In this document: positions 2,248-25,711 of the stretch, piece by piece
Position numbering within the stretch: the first letter of the stretch is position 1
How the letters are laid out: each line of letters opens with the position of its first letter
Program-made: the position numbers and the translations under genes
Notes under the pieces: model-generated
What the model was told of the DNA's origin: nothing
The model's input: only the letters and a program-made list of their open reading frames with translations
Databases searched by the model: none
Origin: a virus
Lineage: Duplodnaviria > Heunggongvirae > Uroviricota > Caudoviricetes
Strand: one strand, 5' to 3'
Virus record (IMG/VR): IMGVR_UViG_2667527522_000007
Length of the DNA: 28,944 nucleotides

Positions 2248-2726
2248 TATCCCGCCCCCGTCATACCCGTGAATCTGGTCGCCATACTGCCAGCTTTACC
2301 GATGAGCGATTCCGCCTGTTTACCGATATCGCCATAAAGCGCGGCCAGTGATTCATCAACGCGGGTGAGCGACAGCGTAAAATCAATTTTTCTGGGTGTG
2401 CCGTCTGCAAAGAAAATACTCCCTGTTTCACTCACCCTGCTGATGACATACATGCCGTAAATCATGCCGGTGCCATCCAGCAACGGCCACGCCCGGCCTT
2501 CCTCTGCCATCAGCCTGAGCGTGGTCATCGTCAGCTTCCCGCCGGTCAGTTCGGGATAAAGCACGCCGGCAAGCGTCATGTTTTCCTCACCCACACCGAG
2601 AAACTGGTAGGCATCCCGTTTACCGATACGGGAATTTGACGGCCAGCGATAATCTGATTCACGCTGCATGGTCTGGTGTGGCAGCGTCTGGCGCATAAAA
2701 ACAAACATACCTAACGCGAGCATCAT
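2247..2726 (-). CDS. U: Tail protein U
   Basis: 159 aa, position between T and D, start/stop overlap with D. Confidence 0.8.
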   Translation of the reverse strand: MMLALGMFVFMRQTLPHQTMQRESDYRWPSNSRIGKRDAYQFLGVGEENMTLAGVLYPELTGGKLTMTTLRLMAEEGRAWPLLDGTGMIYGMYVISRVSETGSIFFADGTPRKIDFTLSLTRVDESLAALYGDIGKQAESLIGKAGSMATRFTGMTGAG

Positions 2727-2740
2727 TTTTCGTCACCTCC

Positions 2741-5188
2741 TTAACCGTCATGCATCATGCTGGCACGGGCGCGCGCACGTTTATCCCGCTCGTATTTTTC
2801 GAGCGCATCCTGTAACTGGCGGTCAAGCTGTGTCCCCGGCGCAGTACCACCCGTCAGGCTGATGTGATATTCGTTTTTACTCTGGTCCACATAAGAGCGG
2901 CCAGCCGGTGCCGTGACCGGCTGATAAGCCTGATAGCCTGCATAAGAGCTGGTCGCCGGAATATAACCACCGCTGCCATACGTGGCGGCTTGAGTTCTGG
3001 CGGCGGTCTGGTCAAGTGTGTCTGACTCTTTGTTGATAACACCGAGTTTTTCCAGTACCCAGTCAATACCGCTGCGCAGTTTGTTGAACGCATTAAGCGG
3101 CAGCATCAGCGCGTCAGCCAGTGCCTGCCCGAACATGCCCCCCGTGTCACGGCAACTGTTCAGGGTGTCCTGAGTGGCTTTGACCGGAGCAATCAGGTTT
3201 TTAAACCACTGCCACGCGGCCTGTAACTTTTCACCCAGCCAGTCAAACACCGGCTTAAGTGGCGTGAACAGTTCCCCCACCGGCGCAAATGCCACTTTCA
3301 GCCCTTCAACCACACCGCCAAAGAATGCGCTGACAGGCTCCCAGTATTTACGGATAAGCAACGCCCCGGTGACAATTGCGGCCACCACGGCCACAACCGG
3401 CCAGCTAATAGCCCCGATGGCGGTCATAACAGCACTGCCAACCGTCGTGAAGACTGCCCCCATTGCGCCTGCTGCCGCGATGATGGCATTGATGCCGGTG
3501 ATAACCGGCCAGGCTACGAGGCCAATGGCACCGATGATGCCAGTCAGCGCCAGCGCGCCACCGGCAATGATGCCGATGGTTGACGCCAGTGATTTGTTTT
3601 TCTGGATCCAGCCGTCGAGTTTTAACACATACTTTGTGGCCGTCTGCGTGAGCTTACGCAGCGCGCCTTCCTGCTGGTCAAACAGGTCAGTCCCCACTGC
3701 CTCATAAGCGGACTGAAACTCTTTAAAGTCACCGCCTAGGTTGTCCTGCATGATATTTACCAGCTCGGCGGTCTTCCCGTCTGAGGCTTTAAACGCAGCG
3801 GTCAGTTTGTCCAGCTTTCCGGTTGAGGCGGCAGTCATCAGCACGGCGGCGGCTGAGCTGGCCTCCTCCCCGAAAATAGTTTTCATGTATTCAGCCTGCT
3901 GGGCAGTACCGAGCCGGTTTTTCTCAAAACTGGCCTGCATTTCTTTCAGAATGGTAAATATTGGCCGGGTGTTTCCCTTGCTGTCTGAGGTTTTCACGCC
4001 AAGCTCTTTGAGTGCATCCCATGCTTTTCCCGTCGGTGCCTGCAGGCGGCTTAACACGGCACGGCTTCCCGTCCCCGCCATTGAGCCTGTGATTTTTGCA
4101 TCATGCAGCGCCCCGACCATTGCGGCGGTTTCTTCAATGCTGACACCGGCATTTTTTGCCACAGGTGCGGCATAGGTCAGCGCATCGCTCATGCCGTCAA
4201 AATCGGCGGCGGTTTTGTTCATCGTCATGGAGAGAACATCCCCGATATGAGCGACCTTATCGTTTGAAAGCTGAAAGGCGGATTTCATCCCCATCAGCAG
4301 GGCGGCGTTTTCTTCCATCGTGCGGCGGTTCGCCAGCGCCATATTCAGCGTGACCGGCGTTGCCGCCTGAATGGCATCAACATCCCCACCCGCTTTCGCG
4401 ATGATTATCTGTGCACCGGCCGCATCATCCGCCGAGGCGGCGGTATTGTCGCCGAGCTGGCGCGCCTGTTTGCGTAGTGCGGTCATTTCGGCGGAGTCTT
4501 TTGCCACTCCGAGCACGGCCTGCAATTCTGAGTTTTTCTGCGCAAACTCATAACCGGGCATCAGCAGCTTAACTCCGGCCATCGTTCCCGCCGCCGCAAT
4601 CCCCACACCGGCAGCGCCCACCGAGGCCATATTTCCGGCCAGTTCCTTTCCGGCCTGATAACGCTGTTTGACTGCGTTAAGTTTTGCCTGTTGCGCACTG
4701 ACACGCGCCAGCGCGTCGCGCTGACGGTTAAGCTGTGCGGTGGTTTCACTGATACGGTTTTTCAGTCCCTGCTCATCATGTGCAAGATTGCGGGTATTAA
4801 TTCCCACAGCGGCCAGTTCCCGCTGCTGGCGTTTAACGGAATCCGTCAGGCGGTTATATTTCGCCTGTAAGTCCTCCGCCGCACGCTTTGCGGATTCCAG
4901 CACTTTCGCCTGAGCACGGGTCGGACGTTCGGTGTTTTTAAACTGTGTGGCAAGGGCTTCAGCCTCCTGCCGTGCCTTTTCAAGTGCATGACCAGTCACG
5001 GCGAGCTGTGCACTGGTCTTGCGAAATCCCTCAATACGGGACGCCTGACCGTTCAGCTCGCGCAGTGATTTTTGTGTTTCCCGGATATCCCCCGACAGCG
5101 ATTTGCTCGCTGTGCGGATGGATTTAAACGGGCGGGATGCCTGGTCAACAGCCCTGAGCAATACCTGTAATTTTACATTGTTACTCAT
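2741..5188 (-). CDS. T: Tail tape measure protein T
   Basis: 815 aa, Ala/Gly-rich with coiled-coil N-terminus and hydrophobic central segments; follows E/E'. Confidence 0.85.
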   Translation of the reverse strand: MSNNVKLQVLLRAVDQASRPFKSIRTASKSLSGDIRETQKSLRELNGQASRIEGFRKTSAQLAVTGHALEKARQEAEALATQFKNTERPTRAQAKVLESAKRAAEDLQAKYNRLTDSVKRQQRELAAVGINTRNLAHDEQGLKNRISETTAQLNRQRDALARVSAQQAKLNAVKQRYQAGKELAGNMASVGAAGVGIAAAGTMAGVKLLMPGYEFAQKNSELQAVLGVAKDSAEMTALRKQARQLGDNTAASADDAAGAQIIIAKAGGDVDAIQAATPVTLNMALANRRTMEENAALLMGMKSAFQLSNDKVAHIGDVLSMTMNKTAADFDGMSDALTYAAPVAKNAGVSIEETAAMVGALHDAKITGSMAGTGSRAVLSRLQAPTGKAWDALKELGVKTSDSKGNTRPIFTILKEMQASFEKNRLGTAQQAEYMKTIFGEEASSAAAVLMTAASTGKLDKLTAAFKASDGKTAELVNIMQDNLGGDFKEFQSAYEAVGTDLFDQQEGALRKLTQTATKYVLKLDGWIQKNKSLASTIGIIAGGALALTGIIGAIGLVAWPVITGINAIIAAAGAMGAVFTTVGSAVMTAIGAISWPVVAVVAAIVTGALLIRKYWEPVSAFFGGVVEGLKVAFAPVGELFTPLKPVFDWLGEKLQAAWQWFKNLIAPVKATQDTLNSCRDTGGMFGQALADALMLPLNAFNKLRSGIDWVLEKLGVINKESDTLDQTAARTQAATYGSGGYIPATSSYAGYQAYQPVTAPAGRSYVDQSKNEYHISLTGGTAPGTQLDRQLQDALEKYERDKRARARASMMHDG

Positions 5189-19107: not shown

Positions 19108-19280
19108 TGTCAGGAGTCCTGAATAGTGATTAGAGGAGTCACATGTCGGCATCAGTTTCCCGACGATGCGCATCCTCCGCCATCAGTCCCGGATGGCTTA
19201 TCACTGACACAACAGCACCTTAGCGAATCGCGGGGCGCGACTCAGTAGCCTTGCCGTGTATTCATCACGGCGAGGTATTC
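19108..19280. promoter_or_regulatory. Divergent late promoter region (P-Q leftward partner versus O-N-M-L...), presumably Ogr-dependent
   Basis: Intergenic gap between divergently transcribed O and P; assigned by synteny with P2, motifs not verified. Confidence 0.4.
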
Positions 19281-21053
19281 ATGACCATCACCACAGACAC
19301 CACTCTTTTACACGACCCGCGTCGTCAGGCGGCGCTGCTGTACTGGCAGGGGTTTTCCGTGCCGCAGATTGCCGCCATGTTGCAGATGAAACGCCCGACG
19401 GTGCAGAGCTGGAAACAGCGCGACGGCTGGGACAGCGTTGCCCCCATCAGCCGTGTCGAAATGAGTCTGGAAGCGCGGCTGACCCAGCTCATCATCAAAC
19501 CGCAGAAAACCGGCGGTGACTTCAAGGAAATTGACCTGCTGGGACGCCAGATTGAACGGCTGGCGCGGGTCAACCGCTACAGTCAGACCGGCAACGAGGC
19601 AGACCTTAATCCGAACGTCGCTAACCGCAACAAAGGCGGGCGTCGCAAACCGAAAAAGAATTTTTTCAGTGACGAGGCCATCGAAAAGCTGGAGCAGATT
19701 TTCTTTGAGCAGTCTTTCGACTATCAGTTGCACTGGTATCGCGCCGGGCTTGAGCACCGCATCCGCGATATCCTGAAATCCCGCCAGATTGGCGCGACGT
19801 TTTATTTTTCCCGCGAGGCGCTGCTGCGCGCCCTGAAAACCGGTCATAACCAGATTTTTCTGTCGGCCAGTAAAACGCAGGCGTATGTGTTCCGCGAATA
19901 CATCATCGCCTTTGCCCGGCTGGTTGACGTTGACCTGACCGGTGACCCGATTGTCCTGGGCAATAACGGCGCAAAACTGATTTTTCTCGGCACCAACTCC
20001 AACACCGCGCAGAGCCATAACGGCGACCTGTACGTCGATGAGATTTTCTGGATCCCGAATTTTCAGGTACTGCGTAAGGTGGCATCAGGTATGGCCTCAC
20101 AGAGTCACCTGCGCTCGACCTATTTCTCCACCCCGTCCACGCTGGCGCACGACGCCTATCCGTTCTGGTCGGGTGAACTGTTCAACCGGGGACGCGCCAG
20201 CGCCGCCGAACGCGTGGAAATCGACGTCAGTCATAACGCCCTTGCCGGTGGGCTTCTCTGTGCGGACGGCCAGTGGCGGCAGATTGTCACCATTGAGGAC
20301 GCCCTGAAAGGTGGCTGCACGCTGTTCGACATTGAGCAGCTTAAACGCGAAAACAGCGCCGACGATTTTAAAAACCTGTTCATGTGTGAATTTGTTGACG
20401 ACAAGGCGTCGGTGTTCCCGTTCGAGGAGCTGCAACGCTGCATGGTCGACACGCTGGAAGAATGGGAAGACTATGCGCCGTTTGCCGCGAATCCGTTCGG
20501 CTCCCGCCCGGTATGGATTGGTTACGACCCGTCACACCGTGGCGACAGCGCCGGATGCGTGGTGCTGGCACCGCCGGTGGTGGCCGGTGGCAAATTCAGA
20601 ATACTTGAGCGTCACCAGTGGAAAGGCATGGACTTTGCCACTCAGGCGGAATCCATCCGCAAACTCACCGAAAAATACAACGTCGAATACATCGGTATTG
20701 ATGCCACCGGCCTCGGTGTCGGCGTGTTCCAGCTCGTGCGCTCGTTCTATCCCGCCGCGCGCGATATCCGCTACACGCCGGAAATGAAAACCGCAATGGT
20801 GCTCAAGGCAAAAGACGTTATCCGCCGTGGCTGTCTGGAATATGACGTCAGCGCCACCGACATCACCAGCTCGTTTATGGCTATCCGCAAGACCATGACC
20901 AGCAGCGGACGCAGCGCCACCTATGAGGCCAGCCGCAGCGAGGAAGCCAGCCACGCCGACCTCGCCTGGGCAACCATGCACGCCCTGTTAAATGAGCCAC
21001 TCACCGCCGGTATCAGCACTCCGCTGACATCCACCATTCTGGAGTTTTACTGA
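19281..21053 (+). CDS. P: Terminase large subunit (ATPase) P
   Basis: 590 aa from MTITTDTTLL; same length as P2 gpP. Confidence 0.85.
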   Translation: MTITTDTTLLHDPRRQAALLYWQGFSVPQIAAMLQMKRPTVQSWKQRDGWDSVAPISRVEMSLEARLTQLIIKPQKTGGDFKEIDLLGRQIERLARVNRYSQTGNEADLNPNVANRNKGGRRKPKKNFFSDEAIEKLEQIFFEQSFDYQLHWYRAGLEHRIRDILKSRQIGATFYFSREALLRALKTGHNQIFLSASKTQAYVFREYIIAFARLVDVDLTGDPIVLGNNGAKLIFLGTNSNTAQSHNGDLYVDEIFWIPNFQVLRKVASGMASQSHLRSTYFSTPSTLAHDAYPFWSGELFNRGRASAAERVEIDVSHNALAGGLLCADGQWRQIVTIEDALKGGCTLFDIEQLKRENSADDFKNLFMCEFVDDKASVFPFEELQRCMVDTLEEWEDYAPFAANPFGSRPVWIGYDPSHRGDSAGCVVLAPPVVAGGKFRILERHQWKGMDFATQAESIRKLTEKYNVEYIGIDATGLGVGVFQLVRSFYPAARDIRYTPEMKTAMVLKAKDVIRRGCLEYDVSATDITSSFMAIRKTMTSSGRSATYEASRSEEASHADLAWATMHALLNEPLTAGISTPLTSTILEFY

Positions 21054-22087
21054 TGAGCAAGAAAAAAGGGAAAACACCGCGACCTGCGGCAAAAACAATC
21101 ACCGCCAGCGCCCCGAAAATGGAAGCATTCACCTTTGGCGAGCCGGTGCCGGTACTCGACCGCCGTGACATTCTGGATTACGTCGAGTGCATCAGTAACG
21201 GCAGATGGTATGAGCCGCCGGTCAGCTTTACCGGTCTGGCAAAAAGCCTGCGTGCTGCCGTGCATCACAGCTCACCGATTTACGTCAAACGTAATATTCT
21301 GGCTTCAACGTTTATCCCGCACCCGTGGCTTTCCCAGCAGGATTTCAGCCGTTTTGTGCTGGATTTTCTGGTGTTCGGTAATGCGTTTCTGGAAAAGCGT
21401 TACAGCACCACCGGTAAGGTCATCAGACTGGAAACCTCACCGGCAAAATATACCCGCCGTGGCGTGGAGGAGGATGTTTACTGGTGGGTGCCGTCCTTCA
21501 ACGAGCCGACAGCCTTCACACCCGGCTCCGTGTTTCACCTGCTGGAGCCGGATATTAATCAGGAGTTGTACGGCCTGCCGGAATATCTCAGCGCCCTTAA
21601 TTCTGCCTGGCTGAATGAGTCGGCCACGCTGTTCCGCCGAAAGTATTACGAAAACGGCGCACATGCCGGATACATCATGTACGTTACCGATGCCGTGCAG
21701 GATCGCAACGATATCGAAATGCTTCGCGAAAACATGGTGAAGTCGAAAGGCCGCAACAACTTTAAAAACCTGTTTCTCTATGCCCCGCAGGGGAAAGCCG
21801 ACGGCATTAAAATTATCCCGCTCAGTGAAGTGGCGACGAAGGACGATTTTTTTAATATCAAAAAAGCCAGCGCCGCTGACCTGCTGGACGCACACCGCAT
21901 CCCCTTTCAGTTGATGGGTGGCAAGCCGGAGAACGTCGGGTCACTGGGCGATATTGAGAAAGTGGCAAAGGTCTTTGTCCGCAATGAGCTAATCCCGTTA
22001 CAGGACAGGATTCGGGAAATAAACGGCTGGCTCGGTCAGGAGGTCATCCGCTTTAAAAACTACTCACTGGACACTGACAACGGCTGA
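21053..22087 (+). CDS. Q: Portal protein Q
   Basis: 344 aa, same length as P2 gpQ; start overlaps P stop; adjacent to cos. Confidence 0.85.
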   Translation: MSKKKGKTPRPAAKTITASAPKMEAFTFGEPVPVLDRRDILDYVECISNGRWYEPPVSFTGLAKSLRAAVHHSSPIYVKRNILASTFIPHPWLSQQDFSRFVLDFLVFGNAFLEKRYSTTGKVIRLETSPAKYTRRGVEEDVYWWVPSFNEPTAFTPGSVFHLLEPDINQELYGLPEYLSALNSAWLNESATLFRRKYYENGAHAGYIMYVTDAVQDRNDIEMLRENMVKSKGRNNFKNLFLYAPQGKADGIKIIPLSEVATKDDFFNIKKASAADLLDAHRIPFQLMGGKPENVGSLGDIEKVAKVFVRNELIPLQDRIREINGWLGQEVIRFKNYSLDTDNG

Positions 22088-22092
22088 ACATC

Positions 22093-22114
22093 GCCGCCTG
22101 CGGGCGGCTTTTTT
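22093..22114 (+). terminator. Rho-independent terminator after Q
   Basis: gccgcc-tgcg-ggcggc followed by tttttt. Confidence 0.6.
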
Positions 22115-22256
22115 ACACCCCGCCATCACGCCCTCACACGCTCACCACCGCACAAAACAGCCCGCAGACACACCAACGCCCCGGCGAACAATCTAAACGC
22201 CATCACGACGCGCTCAGACGCTGAAAAAATAAAATCAGCACCACCGCCAGCGCGCA

Positions 22257-22275
22257 GTGCTTTCCCCGCCTCGCC
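22257..22275. other. cos cohesive-end site (19 nt)
   Basis: gtgctttccccgcctcgcc is the reverse complement of GGCGAGGCGGGGAAAGCAC, the P2 cohesive end as I remember it; lies just after Q as in P2. Confidence 0.6.
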
Positions 22276-22560
22276 CGCCCGCTTCACGGGGCGGTTTTAA
22301 TGCAGTTGCATAGATACTATGGATCCGCACCAGTCCTGACCGCACGCCGCCTGAACGGACATCCCCAACGCATGCAAAAACATTCACTTGTTGCATGCAT
22401 AGCTTTTTAAGTACGCCATACCGCAACTGTACATTTTTAAGCAATTGGCAACTTTAAAAAATTTACATTGCTTTCAAGACCTTATCATCCGTAGTCTCTG
22501 TTTTTTACTTTGAGCTACATCAATAAAATCTCAAACATGTTTAATGCAAAGCCCTTGTTA

Positions 22561-22615
22561 CACAACATAGAATGTATGCCTAGAAACAACGACATACTAT
22601 ATGTTGTGTTTTTCC
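22561..22615 (+). other. Long imperfect hairpin with U-tract (candidate sRNA 3' end or attenuator) in the accessory cassette
   Basis: cacaacata...tatgttgtg 9-bp outer stem with an inner gtatg/catac stem, followed by ttttt; possible promoter TTTACA-15-TATCAT about 80 bp upstream (22462-22488). Confidence 0.3.
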
Positions 22616-22675
22616 GGCTCTCTGTTCGGTGATATGCCAAATCACTTTGCGTTTAAACAGAGCATTATTTCAGGG

Positions 22676-22690
22676 CAAGACTTCGCTCAA
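22676..22690 (+). repeat. 15-bp direct repeat, copy 1 (caagacttcgctcaa)
   Basis: Exact 15-mer repeated at 22940-22954. Confidence 0.5.
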
Positions 22691-22753
22691 AAGTCATTCC
22701 ACCTAAGAAGCGCATATACCGGTGGAAGTTGCCCTCTACTTACAGGAGGCAAT

Positions 22754-22867
22754 ATGAAGAAATGCTATTACTGCATTCTCGTTCTGGCCCTCTTTGGCTA
22801 TCCAAACGGTAGTCCGAGTGGTTTGTCAGTAAACGTCAGTAATATCAATGTCAGCATTATGCTTTAA
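22754..22867 (+). CDS. Small 37-aa hydrophobic peptide, function unknown (candidate moron or small toxin-like peptide)
   Basis: AGGAGG 4 nt upstream of ATG; MKKCYYCILVLALFGYPNGSPSGLSVNVSNINVSIML; terminator immediately downstream; the 88-aa track ORF 22601..22867 has no RBS. Confidence 0.3.
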   Translation: MKKCYYCILVLALFGYPNGSPSGLSVNVSNINVSIML

Positions 22868-22880
22868 TATGCTTCAAACA

Positions 22881-22910
22881 AAAAAACCACCTGCCAGGGT
22901 GGTTTTTTTG
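22881..22910. terminator. Bidirectional rho-independent terminator (A-tract, hairpin, T-tract)
   Basis: aaaaaaccacc-tgccag-ggtggttttttt; could terminate both the small-ORF transcript and the convergent early operon ending with A. Confidence 0.6.
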
Positions 22911-22939
22911 CGCCCATCATCAATACGATGAAAGACTGA

Positions 22940-22954
22940 CAAGACTTCGCTCAA
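22940..22954 (+). repeat. 15-bp direct repeat, copy 2 (caagacttcgctcaa)
   Basis: Exact copy of 22676-22690; the pair brackets the small ORF and terminator. Confidence 0.5.
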
Positions 22955-23169
22955 GACGAATTATGCGTCGACATAAGGTTACCCGCAATGATTTTATTAG
23001 ACTAAATGGATGGCCTTTTATGACCCGGATCAAACGGCTGTCCTTACCGACATGCTAGTCACTCAATAGCATTTAGCCTTCTAATTCAGCATGCTATTGA
23101 CCTTCTGCTGCCCCATAACTGCTCCGCATAAGCCATTCAATGCCATATCAAATCACGTTGTGTTTTTAC

Positions 23170-25446
23170 TCAAATGGGTAACGAGAACCCCGGCCACTCA
23201 TCAGCAACCGGATACGTGAATTTTTTCCCGTCATAATTTACGGTCGCGCCACGCGCCAGCGCCTCAAGCTCCCATCGTTGCGGCCTGATACCGTTCTGAG
23301 CGAGGTCAACGCGGATACGGGTAATTTGCATTCTTTCCGACCGGGTCAGTCTGGCCGATGGTGCAATTTCATGTGGTTTTAACGGGCTTCCGTTTCTTTG
23401 CTGACGATTTGGTGTTCTCAGTCCGTGTTTTAATGCGCCCCTGAGCGCCATCACGACCTCCGGGTCACTCCATTCGATAACACCGTCATCTACCAGATTA
23501 AGCACTGCTGCGGCGTGCTCAGAAGGTGTGGGAGCCGGTAACGAAGTATCACCACCGGTGAGCTTTCCACAGTTATTGACAGGACTCCGAGGCGCGGCGA
23601 TGCCGCTTTTTAAAGTCAAAGGCTCAACGACCGGAACTTTCGGCACAATGCGCCAGTCCGTCGTTCTGGTGATATGAATATGACGCGCGCCGAGATGCGG
23701 CGCGTAAATGCCGACCACTCTCTCGACTTCTTCCTCGTATTCGTTAACGTCATCCGACGGGCTACGGGCGACCCTGACAGTCTGACAATCGCGCGGGACA
23801 TTTGCCCCGCCCTGCGCGCTGATATACAGCGCAAAATCGCCACTGTCTGCGGCGGCGCGTGCAGCCTCCACGCGTTCGTCAAATTCATCAGCAATGCTGA
23901 CGCCGCGAGGCAATTTACGTAGCTCACGGTAAGCTCCCATTGTCGGCAGGCCAACCGTTTTAAATTGCGGGATGCGCCACGTTGATGCCCATGCGGTAAC
24001 AGCCGCCGCAGTATCTTTCAGCGGCCTACCGGTATCATTATCGAGCTGACCATCCAGTGCATAGCCGTCGATGTTTTTTGAGATGTATTTCGCGATATAT
24101 CCCGCAGCACCGCCCCGGTTAAGGTGTTTTGCCTGAAAACGGTTTCGCGCGGCTCCTCTTTCGTCGCCATCCTCTTTGAGCGCATAGCGACGCATGATTT
24201 CAATAATCTGGTTACGCTGGCGTGGATTACAAAAAAGCATCATATGCCAGTGCGGCGTTCCGTCGTGGTGTGGCTCGACGACACGCAAACCGTAGACCTG
24301 TAAGTCATTATCCTTGAATGCCGTGCGCATCAGGCTCCAGATACGGCAGAGATATCGCTGCGCATCCTTTGGATTAAATGCCTCATCATTCCAGCCGTGA
24401 TTAAGCTGGACGGTTTTACTTTCGCCTTTTCCGACCTGACGTGCCGGGTGATACTTTGACGGCGCGGTCAGCGTGATAAACATCCCCACATCACCCTCTG
24501 CGGCGGCGTAACGCTCAATACCGGCAATGGTGTTCATCAGCTCCATCCGGCGAATTTCAGGATTAGAAATACTGCCCATCACCTTACTGATAAGGTCGAT
24601 GCGCTCGCCGGTTTCCCTGTTTTCAAGGTCACACGATTTAAGAAATTCCAGATTTGCCTGGCGGCGCGCACGCACATCACGAATGGCATGTTTACTGGCA
24701 TAAGGAGAACGGTCTTTATTGACCTCCCCGACAGCTATCAGTAACGCTTCATGCCAGCGCATACGCTGGCCTTTAAGCTGATGAGTCCACCACTCATCGT
24801 TAAACAGACGGGCAATGGCAGAATATGCCTGCCTCGTGGTCATCTGTCCTTTACGGTATTTTTTCCAGTAGAGAGGGGAAATATTGAAAGCACGTGCAGC
24901 GCCAGCAACATGACCATAGAGGTGAGCCTGCGCCTCATCCGTAAACAGCGATTCTTTCTCGCCATGCGCATCCACCCAGGCATCGCTGAGTTCCTCATAC
25001 ATCATGAAAAGCTGCGATGAGATACGGGCGGCAAACTTTTTCAGCTCCTTGTCATTCATTCCCGGCAGGCGCGCATAGTGGTCACGCTCTGCCAGAAACA
25101 GCATCGACGCGTCGGTGTTCATTTCATGGCGCTGATTCACACGCTCAATGCGCGGCCATAAACGACGCTGAAAAGTGGATGTGAGGAAATAAAACCCGTG
25201 CACCGGGCTTTTATTGCGCCGGATGTAGTCATAGCGTGAAGTAAACAGCGAGCGCAAAAAGTAAGGCAGGCGGTTAATCGTGGATAAAACACCTTGCACC
25301 TGACGCATCTCGTCACGTGTAAGAGGTCTTTCGCGCCCGACAGCCTCGCGTGGCGCGTTCCATGCATAAGCACCGGTAAACGCCTTACCGGTGCCTGCGG
25401 CAAATGCTGACGGAGGGACAAAACGCCCGGAGGCTTTAACGGCCAT
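23170..25446 (-). CDS. A: Replication initiation protein A (rolling-circle nickase family); start chosen at MAVKASGRF
   Basis: About 758 aa; P2 gpA-like by length and position at the end of the early operon. Confidence 0.85.
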   Translation of the reverse strand: MAVKASGRFVPPSAFAAGTGKAFTGAYAWNAPREAVGRERPLTRDEMRQVQGVLSTINRLPYFLRSLFTSRYDYIRRNKSPVHGFYFLTSTFQRRLWPRIERVNQRHEMNTDASMLFLAERDHYARLPGMNDKELKKFAARISSQLFMMYEELSDAWVDAHGEKESLFTDEAQAHLYGHVAGAARAFNISPLYWKKYRKGQMTTRQAYSAIARLFNDEWWTHQLKGQRMRWHEALLIAVGEVNKDRSPYASKHAIRDVRARRQANLEFLKSCDLENRETGERIDLISKVMGSISNPEIRRMELMNTIAGIERYAAAEGDVGMFITLTAPSKYHPARQVGKGESKTVQLNHGWNDEAFNPKDAQRYLCRIWSLMRTAFKDNDLQVYGLRVVEPHHDGTPHWHMMLFCNPRQRNQIIEIMRRYALKEDGDERGAARNRFQAKHLNRGGAAGYIAKYISKNIDGYALDGQLDNDTGRPLKDTAAAVTAWASTWRIPQFKTVGLPTMGAYRELRKLPRGVSIADEFDERVEAARAAADSGDFALYISAQGGANVPRDCQTVRVARSPSDDVNEYEEEVERVVGIYAPHLGARHIHITRTTDWRIVPKVPVVEPLTLKSGIAAPRSPVNNCGKLTGGDTSLPAPTPSEHAAAVLNLVDDGVIEWSDPEVVMALRGALKHGLRTPNRQQRNGSPLKPHEIAPSARLTRSERMQITRIRVDLAQNGIRPQRWELEALARGATVNYDGKKFTYPVADEWPGFSLPI

Positions 25447-25711
25447 ATGAGCCAAAAGCCTCAGAACAACGCTTGCTGAGTTGCTCAACCTGCGCGTTTA
25501 AATCAGCAAAAGACTTTGCGCTTCCGGTCAGAATATCGTGATGCATCAGGCCGGAAACGAGCTGGCTTAATTTCGGGTAATAACCAACCACCGCCAGCCA
25601 TTCCTGACCGGCGTTTTTACCGCTTTCCGCTCTCTTTTTCTCGTGGAGAATAAACTGAAAGCTGTCACTGGTAACGACATAACGTTCGCCAATTTCGATA
25701 CGAATACTCAT
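25436..25711 (-). CDS. Early-operon hypothetical protein (P2 orf83 position)
   Basis: 91 aa; stop overlaps A start; synteny. Confidence 0.6.
   Translation of the reverse strand: MSIRIEIGERYVVTSDSFQFILHEKKRAESGKNAGQEWLAVVGYYPKLSQLVSGLMHHDILTGSAKSFADLNAQVEQLSKRCSEAFGSYGR

Follow-up and report, generated by a model that had tools for sequence, protein, structure and literature searches.

The par locus of the Enterococcus faecalis plasmid pAD1 has convergent promoters, a bidirectional terminator and DNA direct repeats that are transcribed in both directions (PMC7472228). In the Gram-negative type I toxin-antitoxin families described in the T1TAdb paper, the small RNA (sRNA) is either divergent and non-overlapping or fully overlapped (PMC8594479), which would make a convergent layout with a shared terminator unusual for enterobacteria. 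In the timP/TimR system, the sRNA TimR base-pairs through its 5' end, over 18 nt, with the 5' untranslated region (5'UTR) of timP (PMC7667032). Here, we describe a pair of 15-bp direct repeats in the IMG/VR virus record IMGVR_UViG_2667527522_000007, a 28,944-nt stretch of DNA (the window) that is a P2-like (Peduovirus) prophage. The repeat is real and, judged by its conservation in homologous loci, functional. It is probably the complementarity element of a cassette, resembling a type I toxin-antitoxin system, that consists of an sRNA gene and a small open reading frame (ORF).

The exact repeat (CAAGACTTCGCTCAA) that a sequence-only reading of the window had pointed out is present on the + strand at 22676-22690 (copy 1) and 22940-22954 (copy 2), 264 bp apart from start to start, and the two copies do bracket a 37-codon ORF (22754-22867) and a bidirectional terminator with 13-bp arms (22879-22910). 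Copy 1 would lie in the leader of a + strand mRNA, ahead of the ORF for a peptide with a hydrophobic N-terminus. Copy 2 would encode, on the minus strand, the 5' seed (5'-GAGCGAAGUCUUG...) of a predicted antisense sRNA of about 74 nt that runs from ~22952 to 22879, with a predicted transcription start at ~22952-22953. With a start at ~22952, the first 13-17 nt of the sRNA are the reverse complement of copy 1, and the repeats in the DNA would be the footprint of complementarity between two convergent transcripts with a common terminator. The 5' tail of the sRNA would pair with the leader at -78 to -64; copy 1 starts 78 nt before the ATG, and pairing over its core (22676-22688) can be extended to 22674-22690. 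Two general features of type I systems are present, namely a gene for a small (<60 amino acids) hydrophobic, translated peptide with its own ribosome-binding site and an adjacent sRNA gene with predicted complementarity to the toxin mRNA, here over 13-17 co-varying nucleotides.

The closest described system in layout is par (Fst/RNA II of pAD1; SprA1/SprA1as). The two share convergent promoters, a common terminator and direct repeats read in opposite directions, with one repeat here and two in par. In both, the terminator hairpins are complementary between the RNAs and the repeats add a second, non-overlapping complementary region (PMC7472228), and a small-peptide toxin (putative here) is carried by plasmids and phages (PMC7472228, PMC8594479). 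The differences are that par is a Gram-positive family, that DRa and DRb of par cover the start codon and the Shine-Dalgarno sequence, whereas the single repeat here lies 64-78 nt before the ATG, and that the peptide lacks the Fst/Ldr signature (transmembrane helix, conserved Trp, charged C-terminus and Pfam match), in particular the charged C-terminus and the Pfam match.

As regards the position of the target and the style of the peptide, timP/TimR of the ryfA locus in Salmonella and E. coli comes closest. The TimR site in E. coli K-12 timP is at -79 to -64, and in both systems the 5' end of the sRNA (predicted in the cassette) targets the 5'UTR far upstream of the ribosome-binding site. The likeness extends to a peptide of 38-41 amino acids with a hydrophobic, signal-like N-terminus, to a CxC-I-(V/L) motif near the N-terminus, and to a ribosome-binding site sequestered in a local hairpin, with control via leader structure, both predicted for the cassette (PMC7667032, PMC11228461). 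TimR is, however, divergent, upstream of timP and has a separate terminator, whereas the predicted sRNA of the cassette is convergent, downstream and shares its terminator; moreover, timPR is a core-genome locus and the cassette is found on mobile elements. BLASTP returned no alignment between the peptide and TimP, hhalign gave a probability of 6% over 11 residues, and the Rfam family RyfA (RF00126) had no match in the cassette.

The tisB/istR-1, zorO/orzO, shoB/ohsC and dinQ/agrB systems likewise combine a small hydrophobic peptide with a short 5'UTR complementarity that is visible as a direct repeat in the DNA (PMC3919570, PMC8594479). They differ from the cassette in that their sRNA is divergent and 5' of the toxin gene, and in that no Rfam or Pfam model matches the cassette. 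Rfam searches of the whole window and five homologous loci at the gathering threshold, and of 22090-23300 at E values up to 10, gave nothing significant; the sub-threshold matches (RNAI, Phe_leader, OrzO-P and others) are driven by the terminator, and OrzO-P, which aligns over the terminator only, scores 21 bits where 60 would be required. In the relevant searchable full-text literature, neither the peptide string nor the seed string occurs. Two papers on the P2 hotspot in which the repeats lie (see below) make no mention of small RNAs, and the more recent of them makes none of toxin-antitoxin systems.

Co-variation of the two repeat copies

Base pairs were counted between copy 1, read as RNA of the + strand, and copy 2, read as RNA of the minus strand, in 15 distinct combinations. 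The 16-bp intermolecular duplex is 98.3% paired, compared with at most 43% in shifted registers, and its 14-bp core is unpaired in no combination; pairing and covariation scores as high as those observed were reached in 0/500 shuffles. Two-sided changes occur at four pairs (C-G to U-A twice, A-U through G.U to G-C, and G-C through G.U to A-U), and all changes in the copies are transitions via wobble intermediates. The Salmonella/Leclercia clade carries TAAGGCTTTGCTC in both copies, so that three substitutions are mirrored. In three diverged lineages (L167, L173 and L188), position 5 is G in copy 1 and still A in copy 2. In a further lineage (L215), both copies have A immediately 5' of the core, where most other lineages have G in both, and this position is altered at three sites together: copy 1, its partner strand in leader helix P1 (described below) and copy 2.

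Where the copies differ from each other within the duplex, copy 1 always has G and copy 2 always has A. Such differences give G.U pairs between a + strand mRNA and a minus-strand sRNA, whereas the opposite polarity would give A.C. Mismatches in the duplex are confined to positions 13-15, which adjoin the 5' end predicted for the sRNA. Among the lineages, the spacing of the copies has drifted between 264 and 271 bp. Both copies are retained in homologs with 50-70% synonymous-site divergence; the longest invariant run of the conserved block is 22641-22687, which ends in copy 1, and 22940-22952 is likewise invariant. This pattern of co-variation is the one that an RNA-RNA helix predicts and is unlike that of protein sites or recombination scars. 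RNA-RNA complementarity accounts for the co-variation, the strand polarity, the drifting spacing and the occurrence in unrelated replicons alike.

Predicted transcripts and the small peptide

The predicted sRNA, placed at 22876-22952 on the minus strand, consists of a single-stranded 5' seed, a variable middle hairpin and a terminator hairpin followed by a U-run, with a folding energy of -29.5 kcal/mol (z = -4.4). The middle hairpin differs in sequence between clades and keeps its pairing, with compensatory changes at eight pairs in the alignment fold. The predicted promoter on the minus strand (22960-22998) comprises a -35 element TTGCGG (22988-22983), a 17-nt spacer and a -10 element CATAAT (22965-22960), with an A/T-rich stretch upstream of the -35 at 22990-22998; 3' of the -10, the minus strand continues with the 7-nt discriminator TCGTCTT and then GAGCGAAGTCTTG. 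The -35 begins with TTG in 41 of 41 unique cassettes (TTGCGG in 24, TTGCGA in 12), 17-18 nt from CATAAT and with A/T-rich sequence upstream, and a 7-nt discriminator precedes GAGCG, with the spacer and discriminator sequences scrambled between clades. The -10 is conserved by construction where loci were retrieved with the terminator-to-AATTATGC pattern; it is present, too, in those that came from BLAST or protein searches. A + strand promoter-like match over copy 2 (CTGACA-17-AATTAT) was rejected, being less consistent across clades than the minus-strand promoter.

The terminator (CAAAAAAACCACC-UGCCAG-GGUGGUUUUUUUG) is a perfect inverted repeat that serves both strands as an intrinsic terminator, and the 3' ends of the two convergent predicted RNAs overlap there. 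Over about 35 nt it does not vary between lineages, the exceptions being a single loop base in Citrobacter and Enterobacter loci and a run length that is altered by one base in a few Klebsiella copies. Such constancy agrees with a twofold constraint, imposed by the two 3' ends that overlap there. With the seed set aside, the further complementarity of sRNA and leader suggested by duplexfold was not clearly above that of shuffled controls.

The distance from the start of copy 1 to the ATG is 77-78 nt in 11 representative lineages and 80 nt in L173; in the window, the end of copy 1 is 64 nt from the ATG. Computed leader helices on the + strand begin with the stem-loop SL1 (22620-22661), with an outer stem of CUCUGUU (22620-22626) and AACAGAG (22655-22661) and an inner stem of GGUGAU (22628-22633) and AUCACU (22641-22646). 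A three-way junction follows at 22673-22734. Its helix P1 pairs GGGCAA (22673-22678) with UUGCCC (22729-22734), the P2 hairpin, which presents copy 1, pairs GACUU (22679-22683) with AAGUC (22691-22695) around the loop CGCUCAA, and P3 pairs UUCCACC (22697-22703) with GGUGGAA (22721-22727). Compensatory changes are found in SL1 (in the Salmonella/Leclercia clade, from the alignment fold), P1, P2 and P3. By eye, P1 pairs in 8/8 sequence versions (for example GGUGGCA/UGCCGCC, GGUGACA/UGUCACC and GGUGGU/ACCACC), and P3 shows A-U to G-C changes as well as swaps of the whole stem. This hand-written structure finds only moderate support on the MAFFT alignment, since the clades carry the 3' strand at different offsets.

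Copy 1 forms the loop and stem of P2 together with the 5' strand of P1, so that binding of the sRNA would exclude P1 and P2, and vice versa. As its 3' strand, P1 has a C-rich tract 18-19 nt upstream of the ATG that is able to pair with the Shine-Dalgarno sequence. Repression could therefore act through melting of P1 by the sRNA, which would free this strand to pair with the nearby Shine-Dalgarno sequence; other possible routes are the blocking of a standby site or of an activating structure, and cleavage by RNase III. In the folding calculations the Shine-Dalgarno sequence is already sequestered, with an unpaired probability of 0.13-0.19 (0.34-0.42 in the Salmonella/Leclercia clade).

The ORF encodes a peptide of 37 amino acids (MKKCYYCILVLALFGYPNGSPSGLSVNVSNINVSIML), a putative membrane toxin, and is preceded by the Shine-Dalgarno sequence AGGAGG (22744-22749). 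In every lineage the ORF encodes 37-39 amino acids behind AGGAGG or GGAGG, and the ratio of nonsynonymous to synonymous divergence (pN/pS) is 0.2-0.5 at a synonymous divergence (pS) of up to 0.6-0.7. The low ratio and the held length indicate that the ORF is translated and under purifying selection. An in-frame upstream extension to 88 amino acids is interrupted by a stop codon in relatives. The family follows the pattern M-x(2-4)-C-x-C-[IL]-[LF]-[VI]-L-[AT]-L..G.Q/P.S/G.W...H-I..., with a hydrophobic N-terminal half (CYYCILVLALFGY), a C-terminal half that alternates polar and hydrophobic residues, and an uncharged C-terminus rich in Ser, Asn and Val. Neither Pfam (five peptide variants) nor NCBIfam (the window peptide) gave a match at E values up to 10, and the peptide variants had no match in PHROGs or PADLOC. 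A profile search of 5.8 billion proteins returned 16 matches, all of them unnamed or 'hypothetical' enterobacterial ORFs. Three of the peptide variants (P0013, P0014 and P0015) are frameshifted or truncated.

Within the ORF, the 32-nt stretch at 22766-22797 (CATTACTGCATTCTCGTTCTGGCCCTCTTTGG in Citrobacter) is identical between E. coli and Citrobacter over its last 31 bases, synonymous sites included; the sole difference is base 22766, which is T in the window. A GCCCUCU tract such as precedes the Shine-Dalgarno sequence occurs a second time in this stretch. Such identity suggests that there may be an additional constraint at the RNA level inside the coding region.

We infer that both RNAs are made, that their pairing represses translation, that the peptide is toxic and that the cassette serves the prophage or plasmid that carries it, either in addiction (stabilization) or in abortive defence; our confidence in the toxicity is lower than in the RNA pairing. 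Several observations weigh against this interpretation. Both RNAs are predictions, as are both transcription starts. No convincing conserved sigma-70 site was found for the + strand mRNA, and the -35 of the sRNA promoter is weak, with 3/6 consensus matches, which is why a consensus promoter scan did not call it. P1 was not recovered by RNAalifold unaided. Blocking copy 1 in silico left the accessibility of the Shine-Dalgarno sequence unchanged, so that the folding energies do not support the route through melting of P1. The hydrophobic segment of the peptide is only 13-15 residues long, and AlphaFold2 run on the peptide alignment gave an uninformative, low-confidence model (pLDDT, the predicted local distance difference test score, of 58). 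Finally, the three seed substitutions of the Salmonella/Leclercia clade may share one ancestral lineage, which would leave fewer independent co-variation events than were counted.

Two candidate promoters for the mRNA were considered and set aside: TTTACA-15-TATCAT at 22462-22488, whose conservation is limited to P2 contexts, and the weak TTGnnC-17-AAACnT at 22510-22538.

Genomic context and spread of the cassette

The whole conserved cassette spans ~22502-22998 (about 500 bp) and comprises the leader, the small ORF, the shared terminator and the convergent sRNA gene with its promoter. Its limits are set by how far homology reaches in loci of Citrobacter, Enterobacter, Klebsiella, Salmonella and Leclercia that have no flanks in common with the window. 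In the window, the terminase gene lies at 19251-21053, the portal gene at 21053-22087 and gene A, which encodes the replication endonuclease, on the minus strand at 23170-25488. The cos site occupies 22257-22275. Position 22275 is the exact end of linear phage records, one of which has an annotated cosL at this point. The cohesive-end sequence of P2 cos reads GTGCTTTCCCCGCCTCGCC in the window, the reverse complement of GGCGAGGCGGGGAAAGCAC. From these gene positions and cos, the repeats fall in the cos-proximal gpA-to-gpQ hotspot of P2-like phages, which holds variable anti-phage cargo (PMC9122126).

Among 5,426 complete E. coli genomes, 190 contain the block 22400-23170, as do about 30 IMG/VR contigs. 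The block directly adjoins the stop codon of gene A; its neighbours on the far side vary between none (in the window), a SIR2 gene, a reverse transcriptase, and ImmA/IrrE with a hypothetical gene. The number of P2-like prophages of E. coli with the cassette is put at about 150-190. The 26 unique block sequences fall into three or four sequence types (86-100% identical), and all contain both copies of the repeat. Outside P2, the cassette is present on one Citrobacter freundii contig, on 421 PLSDB plasmids at 72-75% identity (392 of them from Klebsiella and 351 conjugative), on Salmonella and Leclercia IncF plasmids and on metagenome contigs. The replicons that carry it include P2 prophages, IncF and IncHI plasmids of several genera, and chromosomes.

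It is quite possible, and we propose it tentatively, that the cassette represents an undescribed enterobacterial type I toxin-antitoxin family, the first in Gram-negative bacteria with a par-like convergent, shared-terminator and direct-repeat layout. A 500-bp unit would then move between large plasmids of the Klebsiella group and the anti-phage hotspot of P2-like phages, acting there as an addiction or abortive-infection element and possibly as a recombination anchor beside gene A for swaps of defence cargo. If this were confirmed, a new toxin/sRNA family would join the enterobacterial type I repertoire, and the par-type layout (convergent, with a common terminator and a trans-pairing direct repeat) would be seen to extend beyond Gram-positive bacteria. 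The cassette is frequent on Klebsiella plasmids of clinical importance and unannotated at the edge of the P2 defence hotspot; given this abundance and position, it may be relevant to the maintenance of plasmids, the stability of prophages and defence against phages. The natural compensatory variants of the seed are ready-made specificity mutants.

Individual loci show rearrangements. In L004 (E. coli strain 446, locus 1500-2270), the part to the left of the terminator is of the 86%-identity type and the part to the right is of the window type, a switch that places a crossover at or near the shared terminator. In the Salmonella-clade locus L172 (Logan SRR24490789 contig, 3100-3200), a transposase gene of the insertion-sequence (IS) type stands in place of the terminator stem and of everything on the sRNA side, so that the peptide ORF has lost its predicted antitoxin. 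The record IMGVR_UViG_3300045988_129873 (L035/L140) is exactly as long as the window (28,944 bp) but carries a cassette that is 99.2% identical to that of the window, with the peptide change I8M and the cassette at another offset; it is accordingly a close relative and not the window's own sequence.

Between cos and the cassette, about 110 bp (22300-22410) are 88-98% identical in other E. coli genomes that lack the cassette, and this stretch appears to be a conserved piece in its own right, on the cos-proximal side of the hotspot at its edge. In many 'complete' E. coli chromosomes in RefSeq, the block lies at exactly 2277-3147 on the minus strand. These assemblies have evidently been rotated to the start codon of gene A, presumably by a start-fixing tool that mistook gene A for the replication initiator gene. 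A weaker direct repeat of 30 nt (73% identical) links the leader (22625-22654) with a site just past the gene A stop codon (23136-23165); it is probably due to chance, as its right copy is outside the cassette and absent from the plasmid homologs.

Alternative readings of the repeat pair

The alternative that survives best accepts the sRNA-mRNA pairing and replaces the toxin with a harmless small membrane or secreted peptide that is tuned by the sRNA, with no toxin-antitoxin function. It draws on the same RNA evidence and on the lack of a match between the peptide and any toxin family. In P2-type contexts, gene A transcription heads toward copy 2 and the same terminator; in the phage, some of the sRNA may come from that transcript as its 3' end, so that the peptide would be coupled to phage replication. 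However, the sRNA promoter is retained even where gene A is absent, and the layout, the peptide size, the sequestered Shine-Dalgarno sequence, the enrichment on conjugative plasmids and the position in a prophage hotspot are typical of type I modules. We regard tuning of a harmless peptide as unlikely.

A pair of DNA sites for one protein, one of the two explanations that the sequence-only reading had suggested for the repeats, is very unlikely. A phage or host regulator could loop the DNA or control both promoters from two identical, conserved sites of 13-17 bp near putative promoters, and copy 2 does overlap the weak + strand promoter-like match described above. Nevertheless, the cassette encodes no DNA-binding protein, and none is encoded in common by the P2 prophages, IncF/IncHI plasmids and chromosomes in which it resides. 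The spacing of the copies drifts, and copy 1 also co-varies with its intramolecular partner in P1. The differences between the copies are only of the G.U-compatible kind, in one polarity, with transitions through wobble, which is the behaviour of an RNA helix.

The other suggestion was that the repeats mark an inserted or recombined module. On this view they would have been left around the ORF-terminator unit by insertion, as a target-site duplication, or by site-specific recombination, as att cores. Half of this stands: the cassette is a small, self-contained recombining unit, found beside varied cargo and on plasmids. The repeats as insertion marks are highly improbable, even though they are direct, exact in the window and placed around a compact unit in a known recombination hotspot of P2-like phages (PMC9122126). 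Homology between unrelated contexts starts about 170 bp to the left of copy 1 and continues for about 45 bp beyond copy 2 on the right; the repeats therefore lie inside the mobile unit and do not form its boundaries. A search for relatives with an empty site or a single copy found none among about 100 loci, save the IS-cut L172, and single matches to the 15-mer in IMG/VR are unrelated chance occurrences. Scars would be expected to drift independently, yet the two copies change together, and the cassette encodes no recombinase. What relatives contain instead is the arrangement that the sequence-only reading had itself named as speaking against insertion, with both copies inside a longer conserved block and no indel polymorphism.

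A coincidental 15-mer match in AT-rich non-coding DNA has a negligible probability: by our estimate about 0.4 exact 15-mer direct repeats are expected anywhere in 29 kb, but only about 0.01 within 300 bp, the window holds no further copy with two mismatches allowed (0.07 matches expected; at least two matches in 0/100 shuffles), and, decisively, comparison with homologs that are 25-30% diverged refutes chance and bears out the earlier judgement that the repeat is not accidental, since both copies are there conserved, either invariant or co-varying.

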